A DNA stretch of 64,000 bases, from IMG/VR virus record IMGVR_UViG_3300044723_001152, positions 24,139 to 88,138 of that record. One strand, 5' to 3'. Origin of the DNA: a virus. Lineage: Duplodnaviria; Caudoviricetes. Made by a program: the position numbers and the translations under genes. Positions 2,301 to 23,769 of the stretch are shown here, in pieces; position 1 is the first letter of the stretch, and every line of letters begins with the position of its first letter. The notes under the pieces were generated by a model that worked only from the letters and a program-made list of their open reading frames with translations, did not search any database and was not told the origin of the DNA.

Positions 2301-3845
2301 CTAATGGACACTTTTCCAGTCAAAATTCGTCACTAATTCCATTCCATACTCGTTGGAACCCTCTGGCAATACCACTCCATCTCGGAGTTTTAACTTATTC
2401 ACTTTAAATGGAGTATAATCCACAAAGTGGTGCCATCTACCATATTTCCATACTAAGGTTGCCACATCTGGGTGCATATCTACCAACATCTGGGATTTGT
2501 TTATCGTGCCATCTACGTTATAACCAGTCTTCTTAAACTCATCATTATCTGTATTCTCGGCATGATAGAACTCTGCCGTGTTACCACCTTTAACTGTTTG
2601 AGTGGCAGCCTTGCCCTGTAGAAAGGCATTGAACTGGACACATACATCACCATCTTTCAACACTCTTAAACATATATCCGTGTCTTCATTATATCTACCA
2701 CGCCATCTATGTTTGGTATCGTTACGAATTAATAAACATGAATATATTCTCGTGTTAGAAACAAAAGGTGGATAGTTACTATCTGGTGCGATGAAGAAAC
2801 GATATTGTGGTCCTGCGATATAAACGTTTGAATATCTATCAACGAAATCTTCCATCACTTGAAACCCTACACCACTCTCAAATCTTATCCTCTTGTTATT
2901 ATGTAATCTGTAAAAGTCTGTTATGTTGTCATCAAAAACCCAGTGACTTGTCGCACCAATAGATATGGAATGGTCCCATGCCCAGTTTCTGGCACGACCA
3001 GGTCCATCACCGTGATTGGAGAATGGTGCCTCTAGTAGTGTTACATATGGTCGTATCTTAAAATTATCAAGTGCCTTATCATAGTCGTTCATGTCTTGTG
3101 GTTCTACAACGATATAATGTGGTATCTCCATTCGTGCCAGACTTCTACTCGTAATCATCGTATCACTACGACCTTTACTTACGATGTAACAAGGGTGTTT
3201 TGGGTTCGTTCTACCATTTGGTTGTATCCATCTGAGTAGTAAGTTCTTCGTTATCTCTAACTTTGGATGCCACAGAGATTTACTTTTCTCTGTCACCTCT
3301 TGTTCTATCTTCTCACCAAACTCCTTGTAATCTTCCTTAGTTCTAAAGTGTAGTAAAAATTTTCTGTATGGTGCGTTGTCCTCTTGTTTAAATTTTGGCA
3401 TACCCTTCCAATGTTTGGGCCATGCGTTCTCTTGTATCTCACTATCTCTCGTCTTATCTGCTTTTATCTTACCAAAAAATTTCTTTGCCTTCTTTGGTTC
3501 TATCTTGTTCCTATCAATCACAACTGGTTCATCATCATCTGCCAAGAATGACGTGCCCTCACTCGTTGATTTGATTGGGTAGTATGTCTCTGATACGTTA
3601 CCTGGTATTGATTGGTTAATCTTCTTACAGAAATCTTCTAGGTCATCTAGGTTACGGAATGCCATGTATACTGTCTTATACACATCATCTTTACCCTTAC
3701 TCTCTTTCTGTTTGTGATCCACCACAGCGTCAGCGATGAGTTCATCACCCTCAACATGTCTATCAAGTGTTGCGATATAATCGTCATTCTTTACCTGTGT
3801 CTTATCCATGAAGTTATCATATCTAGCCGTTTCTTTTACCATCAC
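2301..3845 (-). CDS. TAGT/GREB1-like GT-A glycosyltransferase with an N-terminal extension of small repeated domains
   Basis: Motifs PCYIVSKGR, HYIVVEPQD..Y, GPGRARNWAWD, HWVFDDNI, RWRGRYNEDTDICLRVLKDG, KGGNT, HHFVDY. Confidence 0.8.
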   Translation of the reverse strand: MMVKETARYDNFMDKTQVKNDDYIATLDRHVEGDELIADAVVDHKQKESKGKDDVYKTVYMAFRNLDDLEDFCKKINQSIPGNVSETYYPIKSTSEGTSFLADDDEPVVIDRNKIEPKKAKKFFGKIKADKTRDSEIQENAWPKHWKGMPKFKQEDNAPYRKFLLHFRTKEDYKEFGEKIEQEVTEKSKSLWHPKLEITKNLLLRWIQPNGRTNPKHPCYIVSKGRSDTMITSRSLARMEIPHYIVVEPQDMNDYDKALDNFKIRPYVTLLEAPFSNHGDGPGRARNWAWDHSISIGATSHWVFDDNITDFYRLHNNKRIRFESGVGFQVMEDFVDRYSNVYIAGPQYRFFIAPDSNYPPFVSNTRIYSCLLIRNDTKHRWRGRYNEDTDICLRVLKDGDVCVQFNAFLQGKAATQTVKGGNTAEFYHAENTDNDEFKKTGYNVDGTINKSQMLVDMHPDVATLVWKYGRWHHFVDYTPFKVNKLKLRDGVVLPEGSNEYGMELVTNFDWKSVH

Positions 3846-4915
3846 ATAAATCCTTCCAAGTTACTGTATTCCATCTTATCATCATACCTCTTATTAATCA
3901 TTTCGTTGATACCCTGTAGCCAATTATTTAGGCTATGTTTCTCTATCGTTTTCTCTTGTATATCTCGCCTATGTTGTCTGGTGATAGTATATAGGGCATG
4001 GATACACTCCTCAAAGAAAGAACTATTACACACCCTCTTAACTTTCATTATGTGTAGTGGGTCTGCGGCAATCCTCTCTGACGCATGTTTATTGGTATCG
4101 TCAGTAAAGAGTATTGTTGGCACACCACAACCTAATGCTTCCATCGCGGTTATACCCCAACTCTCTCTTGGCCATGTTGATACGAATACTTTTGATTTAG
4201 ATATATTCTCTAATACTTGTTTGTGGTCGGCACCCCTTATCACATTATCCCAATGTTGGTTGTTCTTTACATAGTCGTTGTTGGCGTCATTCTTATATGT
4301 GGCGTCATTCGTCATAACCAGACTTGTCACATTTGTTTTCTCTAATTTCTTCTTTATGATGAATGGTGCTTTCTCTGGGTCATTTCTTGCCACCGTAGAT
4401 ACGTCCCATATACTTTCTTCGTTGAATGGCATATCTTCTGGTAGATAAGATGAGTTGATGTAACCCTTGATTGGTCCAAAATCTATGTTCTTTATTCTCT
4501 TTGCTAATGCCACGTGGTAGTCATATTGATTTGGACTCACAAAATATAAGTGTGTGCCATTATCGTTTAGGTCTTTTAGGATATTACCTAACTCAATCAT
4601 ACGGACGTCACGGACCAGAGGTTCGTGCATCACACAGATAAGTGGTATCTGAAAAGATAACATCATTCTACCCCACCATGGATTATTAAATAATATCATG
4701 TCTGGTTTATGTTTTGTGATGGCGTCTTGTATTGTTTGTTTTGTCTTTCTATTCTCTTTTATCTCATCAGTAATACACAATGGTATTGCCTCATCGTAGT
4801 TATCAAATATATCGTAACAAAACTTCTCTATACCACCAGTGACAACTCTACCAGTATTTGGTTCTACGGTCTCTGTCAGTTTGAAGTGTGTTGAGTATGG
4901 TATTAATACTTTCAT
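3842..4915 (-). CDS. GT-B fold glycosyltransferase (GT4/Glycos_transf_1-like)
   Basis: N-terminal GGIEKF; C-terminal KVFVSTWPRESWGITAMEALGCGVPTI with the E-X7-E motif; ATGA overlap with the next gene. Confidence 0.8.
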   Translation of the reverse strand: MKVLIPYSTHFKLTETVEPNTGRVVTGGIEKFCYDIFDNYDEAIPLCITDEIKENRKTKQTIQDAITKHKPDMILFNNPWWGRMMLSFQIPLICVMHEPLVRDVRMIELGNILKDLNDNGTHLYFVSPNQYDYHVALAKRIKNIDFGPIKGYINSSYLPEDMPFNEESIWDVSTVARNDPEKAPFIIKKKLEKTNVTSLVMTNDATYKNDANNDYVKNNQHWDNVIRGADHKQVLENISKSKVFVSTWPRESWGITAMEALGCGVPTILFTDDTNKHASERIAADPLHIMKVKRVCNSSFFEECIHALYTITRQHRRDIQEKTIEKHSLNNWLQGINEMINKRYDDKMEYSNLEGFM

Positions 4916-4922
4916 ATTCTAT

Positions 4923-4951
4923 ATTATATCACAAAACGATAAAAAAGTCAA
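4923..4951 (-). promoter_or_regulatory. sigma70-type promoter with extended -10, driving the glycosyltransferase pair
   Basis: TTGACT, 17 nt, TATAAT preceded by TGA (TGn); ATG follows 7 nt after the -10. Confidence 0.8.
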
Positions 4952-4953
4952 GC

Positions 4954-6660
4954 CTAGTCCACAATCTTAGTGAAATTCCCTGCTTTTTCGAACCTCATCA
5001 CGTTGGCAAACTTATCCGCTATCATGTCCGTCTTGTGGGATATGATGAAGATATTCTCACCCTCTAAAGTATTTAGGATTTTGAGAAAGTCGTCCGTACC
5101 AGTTCCATCTAAACTACTGTCGAATATCTCATCTAGTAATAAGAGATTGGTGGATATACTGTTCTTCATCTTGGCAATAGCACGCCATGTGAATAGTAGT
5201 GCCAGATTTATTCTCATCTTCTCACCCTCACTAAAAGAGGCGTATGAGAACTCATCACGGAATCTACTTCTTATAGTTTCTTTAAATTCATTGTCTAATC
5301 TAAAGTTTACAAAGAAGTCCATACTGGCAAGATACTTGTTAATCAACTGGTTCATTATTGGTAGGTATTGTTTGATGACCTTCGTCTTAATACCAGTATC
5401 ATTCAACATCGTTTTTGCGGCCTGTAGGTAATCCAGTTCTTCACTCTTCACCAACTTCTTCTCATCGATACCCTTTTGTTGTTCTTCTAACTCTGACAAC
5501 TTGCCCTTCGCTTCGCCAGTATCACTAGATTGTTGTTTGAGTTCATTTATCTTATGTGTCAATTTTGTGTTAATATTGTGTAACTCTATTTTTGACTGTT
5601 CAAACTTCGCAACGTCAATCTCAACTGTTCTTATATCTGTTTCGACACTCTGTATCTTTTCTAACCTCTTACTCAATGATTGTATCTCTTTGTCAGCGTC
5701 CTCTAGTGCCTGGTTCCATTTCATTATCTGTCTGTTGTTATCATCAATCATTTCTTGTTTATTAGATAGTGCCTGTTTACATGTTGGGCAATCATCGTGT
5801 GTCTCGTAGAATGATTTGTGTTTGTTACATTCTCGTAACTTACTCTCAAACTGTGCCTCGAAGTTTCTGAGTTTCGTTGATTTGTCTTGTATGCCATCTT
5901 TATCTAATATATCTTTTCTGAGTTTAGATATCTCTGATTGTAACCCTTGTATGTGTGTGTTGTATTTGTCTATGGCATCCGTGTTATCTGTCACCTTCTT
6001 TATCTCACTCTCAATCTCTATATCACTACGTACCTGTAGTTTCTCTATCATTTCTTTCTGTGTCTCTATCTTCGAGGTTACGATATCCAGTTCTCTCAAT
6101 ATATCTTTCGTCTGTTCTTCCTGTTCTTTTATCCGTATCTTCGCCAACATTTGCATCACGGAGAATACCTTGATATCCAATATATCTTCTACCACCTCTC
6201 GTCTATGTGCTGTCTTTAATTCCATGAATGGTACGAAGGTCGTTGAACCAAGTATGACAACCTGTGTGAATGACCTGAAGTTAAACTTTAGTATCTGTTG
6301 TTCTAACATCTTCTGGTGGTCTGCTATCGTTGCGTCCTGGTCAATCATCTCACCATTGAGGTATATCTCAAATATACCTGGTTTGATACCTCGTCTTATC
6401 TTATACTTGTTATTGGCGATACTGAACTCTAGTTCTATCTCTGTGCCACCTAGGTTGACACTATTGATTAACTGTTCTTTCTTTATCTCTCTGAAAGGTT
6501 TATTGAATAACGCAAAACATAATGCGTCTAGTATGGTAGATTTACCCGCACCATTGTGACCAACCATCAACGTGGTTGAGTTCTGGTTAAGTGGTATCTC
6601 TATAAATGTATTACCGGAAGAAAGGAAGTTCTTCCATCTTATTGTTTCAAATGTTATCAT
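4954..6660 (-). CDS. gp46: recombination endonuclease ATPase subunit (Rad50/SbcC-like)
   Basis: Walker A GHNGAGKST, CPTC zinc hook, signature FSEGEKMRI, Walker B LLLLDE, ISH motif. Confidence 0.97.
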   Translation of the reverse strand: MITFETIRWKNFLSSGNTFIEIPLNQNSTTLMVGHNGAGKSTILDALCFALFNKPFREIKKEQLINSVNLGGTEIELEFSIANNKYKIRRGIKPGIFEIYLNGEMIDQDATIADHQKMLEQQILKFNFRSFTQVVILGSTTFVPFMELKTAHRREVVEDILDIKVFSVMQMLAKIRIKEQEEQTKDILRELDIVTSKIETQKEMIEKLQVRSDIEIESEIKKVTDNTDAIDKYNTHIQGLQSEISKLRKDILDKDGIQDKSTKLRNFEAQFESKLRECNKHKSFYETHDDCPTCKQALSNKQEMIDDNNRQIMKWNQALEDADKEIQSLSKRLEKIQSVETDIRTVEIDVAKFEQSKIELHNINTKLTHKINELKQQSSDTGEAKGKLSELEEQQKGIDEKKLVKSEELDYLQAAKTMLNDTGIKTKVIKQYLPIMNQLINKYLASMDFFVNFRLDNEFKETIRSRFRDEFSYASFSEGEKMRINLALLFTWRAIAKMKNSISTNLLLLDEIFDSSLDGTGTDDFLKILNTLEGENIFIISHKTDMIADKFANVMRFEKAGNFTKIVD

Positions 6661-22131: not shown

Positions 22132-23769
22132 TTATTTTCCGTCTCTGACTACTGGGTTCCACACTTGACCGTATGGATCTGTATAACTCTCTGTCTCTGG
22201 ACCATCTATACCATTATCCACGAACCCAAATGGCGCCATGTCCTGTTCCATGAGGTGTGATTGTTCATCTACCAATCGTGCCCGTATATCTTGGTCAGTT
22301 AATTCTTTGAAGTATGTCTGGTTAGATAACCATGCGAACATCACCAGACAGGTGACTAAATCGTCAGTAGAACCCTCCTCAGCCTCGAACTTCTCCTTGC
22401 CCTTCGCCACATATGTCGATAACTCAGCGATGATATCAAAGTCATGGATCAGGTACTTGTCTGTCTCTATCATCGTCTTTAAGTTAGAACACCCAATCTT
22501 CTTTGTCGCTTTCGTGGTTCTCAACCCTAGTTGAGATTGTTTGCCACTGAAACCTGTTCCCGCAATCTGACCACTACGACCTCGTTGATTGACCATGATG
22601 AGGTTATCGTATTCTAAATCGAACTGTAACGTATCTGCCACCTGACCACCAATATCGTTGACCTCCACCAATATCTCTGCCGTGTTGTAACTCATCGCAA
22701 CCTTGTGGATAATCTGTGGGAATAACATTGGTCGTATCTCATTATCTCTGAACTTGCCTATCACCTTGTATGGTATCTGTGTTGCGTCTGTGATGACGAA
22801 GGCACTATAATCGTTGACCGTACCACGTGCCACATCGACGGTAATCACGTACCTGTGACCTTTTATGGGCATTTCGTATATATCCAGCCCAGCATTACTT
22901 TGTATCGCTTGGTTGTGCGTTAATACTCTTAATTTCGATGAATTTATGAGGGTATCTACACTACCTAGGAACTCACAATCAAACTCCGTTCGAAACTGTT
23001 GTTCACTCGTGTTTCGTATCGTCTCCGCCTTCCACTTCTCATCTCTGCCTGGCACCTCTGACCAGTGAACCTCGATTGGCACATAACTGTTACGTTTATT
23101 CTGTGCGTCATTCCATAACTTGTAGAACATGTTCATACCATGTGGCGTTGATACTATCATCACCTTCGATGATTTACCAGAAGATATCGTAGGATAAACT
23201 GAACTGAAAAACTGTTCAGCGATATTATTAGGGACATAGGCAAACTCGTCCAAGAATATGACGTTGTAAGAACCACCACGCACAGCACTCGATGATGTTG
23301 CCGCGGCAAGTATTCTACTACCATTCTCCAACTCTAAACTACCCTTGTTCCAGTTAATGACACCCTGTTGTAACCACTTTGGTAAATTCTCATATGCCAA
23401 TTGTAATCGACCTAGTAGATCCCTGGCGATAGCAGCCTTGTTCGCAAGTATGGCGATATTCACATTCGCATTGAATATGGCGTAGTGTAATAGGTAAGAT
23501 ATTATCGTTGTAGATTTACCAGTCTGTCTTGGTAACTTACAGATAGAGAAACGATTATCGTGGAATGTATCAACCATCTCTTTCTGGAAGTTATACATCT
23601 TAAATTTCTGTAGACCATGGTCTAGCGTGACTATCTGAATATAGTTAGTAATAAAGTAAACAGGATTCTCTTGGCACTTTATAAATTCTTCGACCTGTTT
23701 CTTTGTGAACTTAACCTTCTGGTTTGCGGCCTTCAGGTTAGGGTTACCCAAATAAGTTTTATTTTCCAT
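22132..23769 (-). CDS. gp17: terminase large subunit
   Basis: YLGNPNLK, RQTGKST, IFLDEFA, STPHG, VDVARG, DDLV. Confidence 0.97.
   Translation of the reverse strand: MENKTYLGNPNLKAANQKVKFTKKQVEEFIKCQENPVYFITNYIQIVTLDHGLQKFKMYNFQKEMVDTFHDNRFSICKLPRQTGKSTTIISYLLHYAIFNANVNIAILANKAAIARDLLGRLQLAYENLPKWLQQGVINWNKGSLELENGSRILAAATSSSAVRGGSYNVIFLDEFAYVPNNIAEQFFSSVYPTISSGKSSKVMIVSTPHGMNMFYKLWNDAQNKRNSYVPIEVHWSEVPGRDEKWKAETIRNTSEQQFRTEFDCEFLGSVDTLINSSKLRVLTHNQAIQSNAGLDIYEMPIKGHRYVITVDVARGTVNDYSAFVITDATQIPYKVIGKFRDNEIRPMLFPQIIHKVAMSYNTAEILVEVNDIGGQVADTLQFDLEYDNLIMVNQRGRSGQIAGTGFSGKQSQLGLRTTKATKKIGCSNLKTMIETDKYLIHDFDIIAELSTYVAKGKEKFEAEEGSTDDLVTCLVMFAWLSNQTYFKELTDQDIRARLVDEQSHLMEQDMAPFGFVDNGIDGPETESYTDPYGQVWNPVVRDGK

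Follow-up and report, generated by a model that had tools for sequence, protein, structure and literature searches.

A long-form TAGT glycosyltransferase with an exchangeable GT4 partner as a candidate DNA-glycosylation pair in marine T4-like phages

Two coupled glycosyltransferase genes downstream of gp46

We examined a 64,000-nucleotide stretch of viral DNA (bases 24139-88138 of the linear, 88,138-bp IMG/VR contig IMGVR_UViG_3300044723_001152; hereafter the window) for a pair of adjacent glycosyltransferase (GT) genes that lie directly downstream of the recombination gene gp46 and encode the proteins P0001 and P0002 (Table 1). The first-pass annotation had recognized both open reading frames (ORFs), which lie on the minus strand, and had assigned them to the GT-B and TAGT families, and hidden Markov model searches bear out both assignments. 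P0002 matches the Pfam family TAGT (PF20691) with 141.6 bits (cut-off 27.5; E 4e-41) over profile positions 2-205 of 205, and phrog_842 with an E-value of 1.8e-42, while P0001 matches Glycos_transf_1 only in its C-terminal half and with a score just above the cut-off (27.9 vs 26.4 bits).

The fold and motifs of P0001 place it among the GT4 enzymes. Its AlphaFold2 model (predicted local distance difference test score, pLDDT, 90.8) shows the two Rossmann halves of a GT-B fold, and both residues of the EX7E motif that is the signature of GT4 enzymes (E251-E259) are invariant among 68 homologues. The best Foldseek matches of the model are GT4 enzymes, led by the DNA glycosyltransferase of phage HY126 (9ir0, E 6e-12); ordinary bacterial GT4 enzymes score nearly as high, so that the HY126 match is not discriminating. 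The GT-B enzyme is not a relative of the T-even alpha- and beta-glucosyltransferases to which the first-pass annotation referred, as tblastn at an E-value of 1e-3 found no match to T4 a-gt or b-gt (GT72 and GT63, respectively) in the contig or in any of the fetched loci. Homologues of P0001 form 76 clusters, and neither tblastn with P0001 nor megablast of the region returned a match among cultured phages. No membrane helices are predicted in P0001 or P0002.

The pair has a promoter of its own, as first proposed: a sigma-70 early-type sequence in which TG precedes the -10 hexamer (extended -10) lies immediately upstream of P0001, and a consensus scan found no late promoter at the pair. Since the -10 hexamer ends at 4923, 7 nucleotides (nt) before the ATG of P0001 at 4915, the mRNA would have little or no leader. 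P0001 also lacks a Shine-Dalgarno sequence, and translation of this first gene may start on an mRNA with no leader or next to none. The two genes are coupled, although not through the ATGA overlap described earlier: the junction reads ATG TGA TGG, giving a 1-nt TGATG overlap if P0002 starts at ATG (3842; 513 amino acids, aa) or a 4-nt GTGA overlap if it starts at GTG (514 aa). The ATG start is favoured because the nearest homologue of P0002 has 513 aa, and P0002 is preceded by the ribosome-binding site GAAGGA. One contig from an RNA library spans 3340-4805 across the gene junction, with DNA carry-over being possible; such sequencing runs were available as contigs, which carry no information on base modification, transcript ends or expression level.

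Table 1. Features of the glycosyltransferase locus (window coordinates)
Feature	Coordinates	Strand	Basis and remarks
Sigma-70 early-type promoter (TTGACT, 17 nt, TG, TATAAT)	4923..4951	minus	Consensus scan, 11/12 positions
P0001, 357-aa GT4-type GT-B glycosyltransferase	3842..4915	minus	Pfam Glycos_transf_1, 27.9 bits
Exchanged cassette body	3880..4897	minus	blastn breakpoints; replaced in L006-L012 by a TAGT-like GT-A gene, 282-285 aa
P0002, 513/514-aa long-form TAGT GT-A enzyme	2301..3845	minus	Pfam TAGT PF20691
P0002 N-module repeat 1, residues 56-98	3552..3680	minus	Beta-alpha-beta unit duplicating repeat 2; DSSP E57-63, H66-76, E86-89
P0002 N-module repeat 2, residues 134-208	3222..3446	minus	WxxHWxGMPxF helix and beta-alpha-beta unit
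P0002 GT-A catalytic core, residues 218-421	2583..3194	minus	R226, D305-D306-N307, E332-D333-F334, E387-D388
P0002 C-terminal extension, residues 431-514	2304..2555	minus	Conserved in long-form subfamily: H458, P459, R470, H473, Y477
gp55 (late sigma factor)		minus	First of the series in transcription direction
gp47 (SbcD-like)		minus	Directly after gp55
2OG-FeII_Oxy_5 oxygenase, 217 aa	6662..7315	minus	Pfam; between gp47 and gp46
gp46 (SbcC-like recombination nuclease subunit)	4954..6660	minus	phrog_77, E 1.4e-164; conserved upstream anchor of the island

Domain architecture of the long-form TAGT

P0002 belongs to a conserved long form of TAGT, whose N-terminal module, polymerase fusions and lack of acceptor-making genes are described here for the first time. 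The AlphaFold2 model of the protein (pLDDT 89.1, predicted template modelling score 0.89) comprises two small beta-alpha-beta units followed by the GT-A core and an 80-residue extension. Foldseek searches with this model retrieved generic GT-A enzymes from the PDB and, among viral models, TAGT proteins including a T-even-type enzyme; a sequence-based profile search of the PDB found no relative. Phage DNA GT-A enzymes share the pattern R...DDD...EDY/F (10.1101/2023.12.21.572611), and the residues of P0002 fit it. R226, D305, D306, N307, E332 (within EDF) and D388 are invariant in 145 sequences, and the third Asp of the pattern is always Asn in this TAGT subfamily. Homologues of P0002 are numerous, forming at least 7,627 clusters at 90% identity and 2,814 clusters at 50% identity, and most of them align only from about residue 140.

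The part that most homologues lack is accounted for by a separate gene. In a second set of 75 loci, containing TAGT genes from other phages, a short TAGT (272-327 aa) is directly adjoined by an ORF of ~110 aa in 60 cases; this small partner lies upstream of TAGT in 44 loci and downstream in 11. Residues 117-208 of P0002 are 42% identical to a 109-aa partner ORF (E 1e-24), and a stand-alone partner (L162:3468-3797) also matches residues 56-98, though more weakly (E 2e-5). As the partner protein matches both repeats, P0002 carries at its N-terminus a copy of it that has been fused on and duplicated. The module is basic, with an isoelectric point of 9.7 for residues 141-215, and carries a conserved WxxxWxxMPEF motif. 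No Pfam family covers the N-module or the C-terminal extension, and a search of the ESM Atlas with the N-module returned nothing usable (scores ≤0.84).

A conserved TAGT with an exchangeable neighbour

Synteny was compared over 80 IMG/VR loci. TAGT is mostly fixed directly after gp46, in dozens of contigs, while the adjoining gene varies. The neighbour is a GT4 gene in 28 loci and a second, TAGT-like GT-A gene of 282-294 aa in 24; elsewhere it encodes an FkbM methyltransferase, a P-loop kinase or proteins of 353-387 aa without known function. Sugar-activating genes lie at a distance of one or two genes, being cytidylyltransferase-like in 22 loci and phosphomannomutase-like in 7. In a separate group of contigs, L053-L061, the order is reversed, with GT4 following TAGT and a 93-aa WYL_2 (Sm-like SH3) protein encoded ~300 nt upstream of TAGT.

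An exact gene-for-gene swap is seen between genomes that are ~85% identical. An identity of 83-87% between the window and its relative L006 runs from gp47 across gp46 and the promoter into the P0001 ORF, where it stops after 18 nt, and it resumes 35 nt before the start of TAGT; the promoter and the beginning of the ORF are thus kept despite a different gene body. The gene that replaces the GT4 body in L006-L012 encodes a GT-A enzyme that itself matches Pfam TAGT with 32.6 bits. Conversely, when GT4 genes at least 49% identical to P0001 were taken as the starting point, TAGT was immediately downstream in 20 of 24 loci, and three of the four others end at a contig edge.

TAGT is often found without a second transferase. 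Only 8 of the 75 loci from other phages have a GT4 gene within five genes of TAGT, and in cultured phages such as Aeh1 and POP12 no second glycosyltransferase is annotated beside it. TAGT should thus need no other transferase to act on the primary acceptor, which suggests that it acts first and the GT-B enzyme second, the reverse of the order in T2 and T6.

Association with DNA and its replication

The subfamily is linked to DNA polymerases. Five separate 50%-identity clusters (P0225, P0240, P0246, P0254 and P0272) fuse a TAGT of this subfamily to a family A DNA polymerase, and one such fusion is an uninterrupted ORF of 1077 aa in a 100%-complete viral contig of 57.8 kb. In that contig (L102 8180-13180) the TAGT genes stand in tandem, a 518-aa ORF preceding the 1077-aa fusion. 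The gene immediately downstream of TAGT is gp43, the family B polymerase, in nine marine T4-like loci, and in Paraglaciecola virus GD1 TAGT comes after two helicase genes. Two TAGT clusters are fused to a SLOG nucleotide-binding domain.

A bacterial genome, that of Marivivens donghaensis CECT 8947 (L098 7956-11041), encodes a 575-aa TAGT-like protein and a 451-aa long-form TAGT side by side. The two genes are flanked by integrase genes and lie beside N6-adenine methylase genes, which we count in favour of a DNA target. This locus is probably a prophage or island, and the cultured Rhodobacteraceae host would be a tractable system.

The operon in the window likewise sits in the replication/recombination region under an early-type promoter. 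The TAGT family includes the T2/T6 enzyme that glucosylates DNA containing glucosyl-5-hydroxymethylcytosine (glucosyl-hmC) (PMC13216743, PMC13390438), and GT-A enzymes of the same family glycosylate 5-hydroxymethylcytosine (5hmC or hmC) in DNA (10.1101/2023.12.21.572611). Taken together, the family, the polymerase fusions, the adjacency to gp43, the promoter and the position point to DNA as the most likely target of the pair.

A possible function in DNA glycosylation

We tentatively favour an explanation, by no means secure, in which TAGT, with its module, attaches a first sugar to phage DNA as it replicates, and this sugar is extended by the exchangeable GT4 enzyme. The two genes would form a glycosylation operon that is transcribed early from its own sigma-70 promoter, alongside the replication and recombination genes. 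The long-form TAGT would draw on the nucleotide-sugar pool of the host and attach the first sugar to phage DNA close to or at the replication fork, and P0001 would add a second one, giving a disaccharide-type decoration that may shield the phage genome from host nucleases. With the second enzyme being exchangeable, the glycans would differ among close relatives, which is what an arms race with modification-dependent defences should produce. Sequence and structure analysis establishes the families and folds of the two enzymes, their catalytic motifs, their coupling and promoter, the swap of the cassette, the fusions to polymerase and the lack of known acceptor-making genes; that DNA is the target, that the enzymes act in this order and that the sugars protect the genome is inferred from these.

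Several findings weigh against this explanation. We know of no DNA glycosyltransferase that does without a pre-installed hydroxyl group on its acceptor. ThyA-family, TET/JBP, C5-methylase and DpdA genes are each found in none of ten subfamily-carrying viral genomes that are at least 90% complete, nor in four further genomes of 73-84% completeness, and TAGT itself was detected in all 14. A D12 methylase is present in one of 17 records, and 2-oxoglutarate (2OG) oxygenases only in four large genomes. Moreover, ~18 of the 75 loci from other phages, as well as Vibrio phage 1.076.O, have TAGT beside terminase, portal or capsid genes, which also fits glycosylation of the virion, and the TAGT-like domain of GREB1 is reported to glycosylate a protein.

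The searches for acceptor-making genes also bear on the analogy with T-even phages drawn in the first-pass annotation. Its statement that the window has no TET/JBP or hydroxymethylase gene extends to the whole 88-kb contig, ~60% complete as estimated by CheckV, in which we find no Tet_JBP, ThyA-family, ThyX or C5-methylase (PF00145) gene. The two-step glycan that it proposed survives as an idea together with the family assignments; the hydroxymethylated pyrimidine acceptor (5hmC or 5-hydroxymethyluracil, 5hmU) that the analogy implied is not supported, as neither a ThyA-family hydroxymethylase nor a TET gene is found in the contig, in three related contigs that are 76-86% complete or in the ten genomes above. 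Hydroxymethylases were within reach of the ThyA-family search, which detected T4 gp42 with 58 bits. The lack of a gp42-like dCMP hydroxymethylase, on which the T-even hmC system depends, is strong evidence, though not final, given the incomplete genome of the window. Tet_JBP (PF12851) was also not matched in ten long related contigs or in five cultured phages, four of which carry a TAGT homologue (HTVC008M does not). The TET/JBP association from which the family takes its name is therefore not seen for this TAGT, nor does it belong to a methylase-TET-GT cluster, since neither PF00145 nor PF12851 is matched. Nearby methylases are limited to one D12 N6-adenine enzyme, which is not conserved with TAGT, and ThyX, an ordinary thymidylate synthase, is confined to large marine myovirus contigs. 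The acceptor is probably not 5hmC, 5hmU or 5-hydroxycytosine (5hoC) made by a known enzyme.

Two other acceptors were considered and rejected. N6-hydroxymethyladenine, made by a Dam methylase and a 2OG oxygenase, fails as a general mechanism because neither gene tracks with TAGT, and 7-deazaguanine is rejected as DpdA/TGT is found in 0 of the 14 genomes.

The pair may instead decorate proteins, either of the virion (capsid, portal or tail) or some other host or phage protein, with the cassette diversifying a surface glycan; we consider this unlikely, although it has several points in its favour. In Vibrio phage 1.076.O TAGT lies between portal and head-morphogenesis genes, and many small phage contigs have it next to a terminase or capsid gene. 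Nearby epimerase, UDP-glucose dehydrogenase and additional GT genes resemble viral capsid-glycosylation sets, protein-modifying GT-A enzymes are among the PDB matches of P0002 in Foldseek, and a protein target would agree with the lack of an acceptor-base pathway in the ten most complete genomes. A virion-decorating role is, however, hard to square with the fusion of the subfamily to DNA polymerase A and its adjacency to gp43 and helicase genes, with the early-type rather than late promoter of the pair, and with the location of TAGT in the replication region of T4-like contigs.

A comparably small chance is given to the possibility that the long-form TAGT and its small N-module partner constitute a self-sufficient DNA glycosyltransferase, whose acceptor would not be a pyrimidine with a pre-installed hydroxymethyl or hydroxyl group. 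The acceptor could then be a canonical base, the backbone or the product of an unrecognised enzyme. If true, marine phages would widely carry a class of DNA modification not described before.

Less probable still is a conventional T-even-like path, in which the pair glycosylates hmC, hmU or 5hoC made by a hydroxymethylase, hydroxylase or TET enzyme whose gene falls in the 40% of the genome that was not sequenced. The contig is indeed incomplete, all characterised TAGT and GT-B DNA glycosyltransferases act on a hydroxylated pyrimidine, and ThyA is present in some relatives. The ThyA proteins of these few relatives, however, match the full length of the profile with 342-350 bits, as true thymidylate synthases do and T4 gp42 does not. 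Three related contigs of 131-141 kb (76-86% complete) that carry both GT4 and TAGT have no ThyA-family or TET gene, as is also true of the ten subfamily genomes noted above. Among cultured phages, Aeh1, GD1 and POP12 each encode just one ThyA, a canonical one, and lack TET; Vibrio phage 1.076.O has neither gene.

We regard as very improbable that the pair acts on a host envelope glycan (a lipopolysaccharide, LPS, or capsule precursor) or on some small molecule, a nucleotide or metabolite, to exclude superinfecting phages or counter a host defence. The best structural matches of the GT4 and GT-A folds are enzymes of cell-wall and LPS synthesis such as TarP, BshA and HepE, the cytidylyltransferase and phosphomannomutase neighbours are typical of envelope sugar pathways and the SLOG fusion hints at a nucleotide ligand, but both proteins are soluble with no flippase or membrane partner nearby, the phage appears strictly lytic and T4-like, and the polymerase fusions are hard to account for.

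Genomic context and lineage

Genes of the contig are almost all on the minus strand. The gp55-gp47-gp46 order reported upstream of the pair is correct, except that a gene for a 2OG-FeII_Oxy_5 oxygenase, unmentioned before, separates gp47 from gp46. T4 a-gt does adjoin gene 47, as the first-pass annotation stated, but it lies upstream of 47 whereas the present pair lies downstream of 46. Following P0002 in transcription order are a 63-aa ORF, a 732-aa phrog_459 protein and a CobS-like AAA ATPase, and then ribosomal protein S21, a helix-turn-helix protein, Hsp20, the D12-class Dam methylase and a 416-aa uncharacterised protein. The S21 gene (contig 22362-22604, 1.5 kb ahead of the window start; L003 3362-3604; Pfam E 1.2e-18) is phage-encoded and adjoins the CobS-like and Hsp20 genes, as in Pelagibacter phage HTVC008M.

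HTVC008M is the closest cultured relative, its gp46 protein being 67.5% identical to the one encoded in the window, and on this evidence the source of the window is a marine T4-like phage, kin of that pelagimyophage. At the equivalent island HTVC008M has genes unrelated to the GT pair, encoding a 335-aa uncharacterised protein, a JmjC-like cupin and a DruA-like protein; the island is thus variable and TAGT is not universal in pelagimyophages. The cupin and DruA genes are gp105 and gp106 (L085 9737-11420), the latter matching the Druantia DruA family with an E-value of 5.5e-18. DruA belongs to a defence-system family, and its presence inside a lytic phage is unexpected.

The 2OG-FeII_Oxy_5 protein is not a TET/JBP enzyme, as the Tet_JBP profile gave no match. 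Its gene does not co-track with TAGT, being present in HTVC008M without TAGT and missing from many TAGT contigs. It is itself a swapped cassette: its DNA is non-homologous among relatives that are ~90% identical elsewhere, and contigs from public runs connect 6694 straight to 7310.

Comparison with known systems and implications

One close precedent is the pair of alpha-glucosyltransferase and beta-glucosyl-HMC-alpha-glucosyltransferase in T2 and T6, where a GT-B and a GT-A enzyme build a disaccharide in a T4-like phage, near genes 46 and 47. The T2/T6 second enzyme shares the Pfam family (PF20691) and the GT-A fold with P0002, and the T-even-type enzyme of phage PKO111 is a structural match to P0002 (E 6e-11). 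The T-even enzymes, in contrast, have ~280 aa and lack both the N-module and the C-terminal extension; their TAGT adds the second sugar onto glucosyl-hmC and depends on gp42, whereas no hydroxymethylase is found here; and in the present pair the GT-B enzyme is GT4 rather than GT63 or GT72, with TAGT as the conserved and probably first-acting partner.

The metavirome glycosyltransferases of Pyle et al. (10.1101/2023.12.21.572611), which act on 5hmC made by a C5-methylase and TET, have the active-site pattern R...DD(D/N)...EDF in common with P0002. Further likenesses are the sequential GTs, linked sugar epimerases, heptose- and hexose-type donors and GT4-like GT-B enzymes. Their clusters adjoin methylase and TET or ThyS genes, whereas the complete genomes of the present subfamily have none. 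The subfamily falls within the ~65% of GT contigs that were set aside in that study for want of a neighbouring base-modification enzyme (10.1101/2023.12.21.572611). A third system, that of RB69, DLP3 and HY126 (PMC13326640), resembles the present one in its GT4-like GT-B enzyme, phage-encoded sugar-nucleotide synthesis and T4-like phages; the DNA of HY126 carries arabinosyl-5-hydroxycytosine (PMC13326640). It differs in requiring a ThyA-homologue synthase of 5-hydroxydeoxycytidine monophosphate (5hodCMP) and a nucleotide kinase, neither of which is found here. Finally, solitary TAGT homologues, without alpha-GT or beta-GT, have been flagged in 288 of 753 phage genomes as possibly novel transferases (PMC13216743), in a paper that gives no acceptor analysis, domain architecture or marine lineage for them. 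Both TAGTs standing alone and GT contigs in which neither TET nor ThyS is a neighbour were thus already known, and it is their acceptor, architecture and marine diversity that the literature leaves undescribed.

Undiscovered sugar modifications of phage DNA are best sought among the enzymes of the TAGT family, and the lineage described here is very abundant in the ocean, where it infects SAR11-type hosts or is kin to phages that do. The gene-for-gene exchange of the second glycan enzyme is the pattern expected of an arms race. Several cultured phages share the TAGT subfamily, making the question of its target directly testable; the long form is present in Aeromonas phages Aeh1, phiAS5 and 65, Tenacibaculum phage PTm1, Pectobacterium phage POP12 and Vibrio phages Kuja and 1.076.O. 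If the target is a protein, the pair would represent a widespread virion glycosylation system in marine phages. If it is DNA, the complete genomes without a known acceptor-making enzyme would imply a chemistry not yet described, with consequences for the evasion of restriction and CRISPR, for sequencing biases in metagenomes and for enzyme tools.

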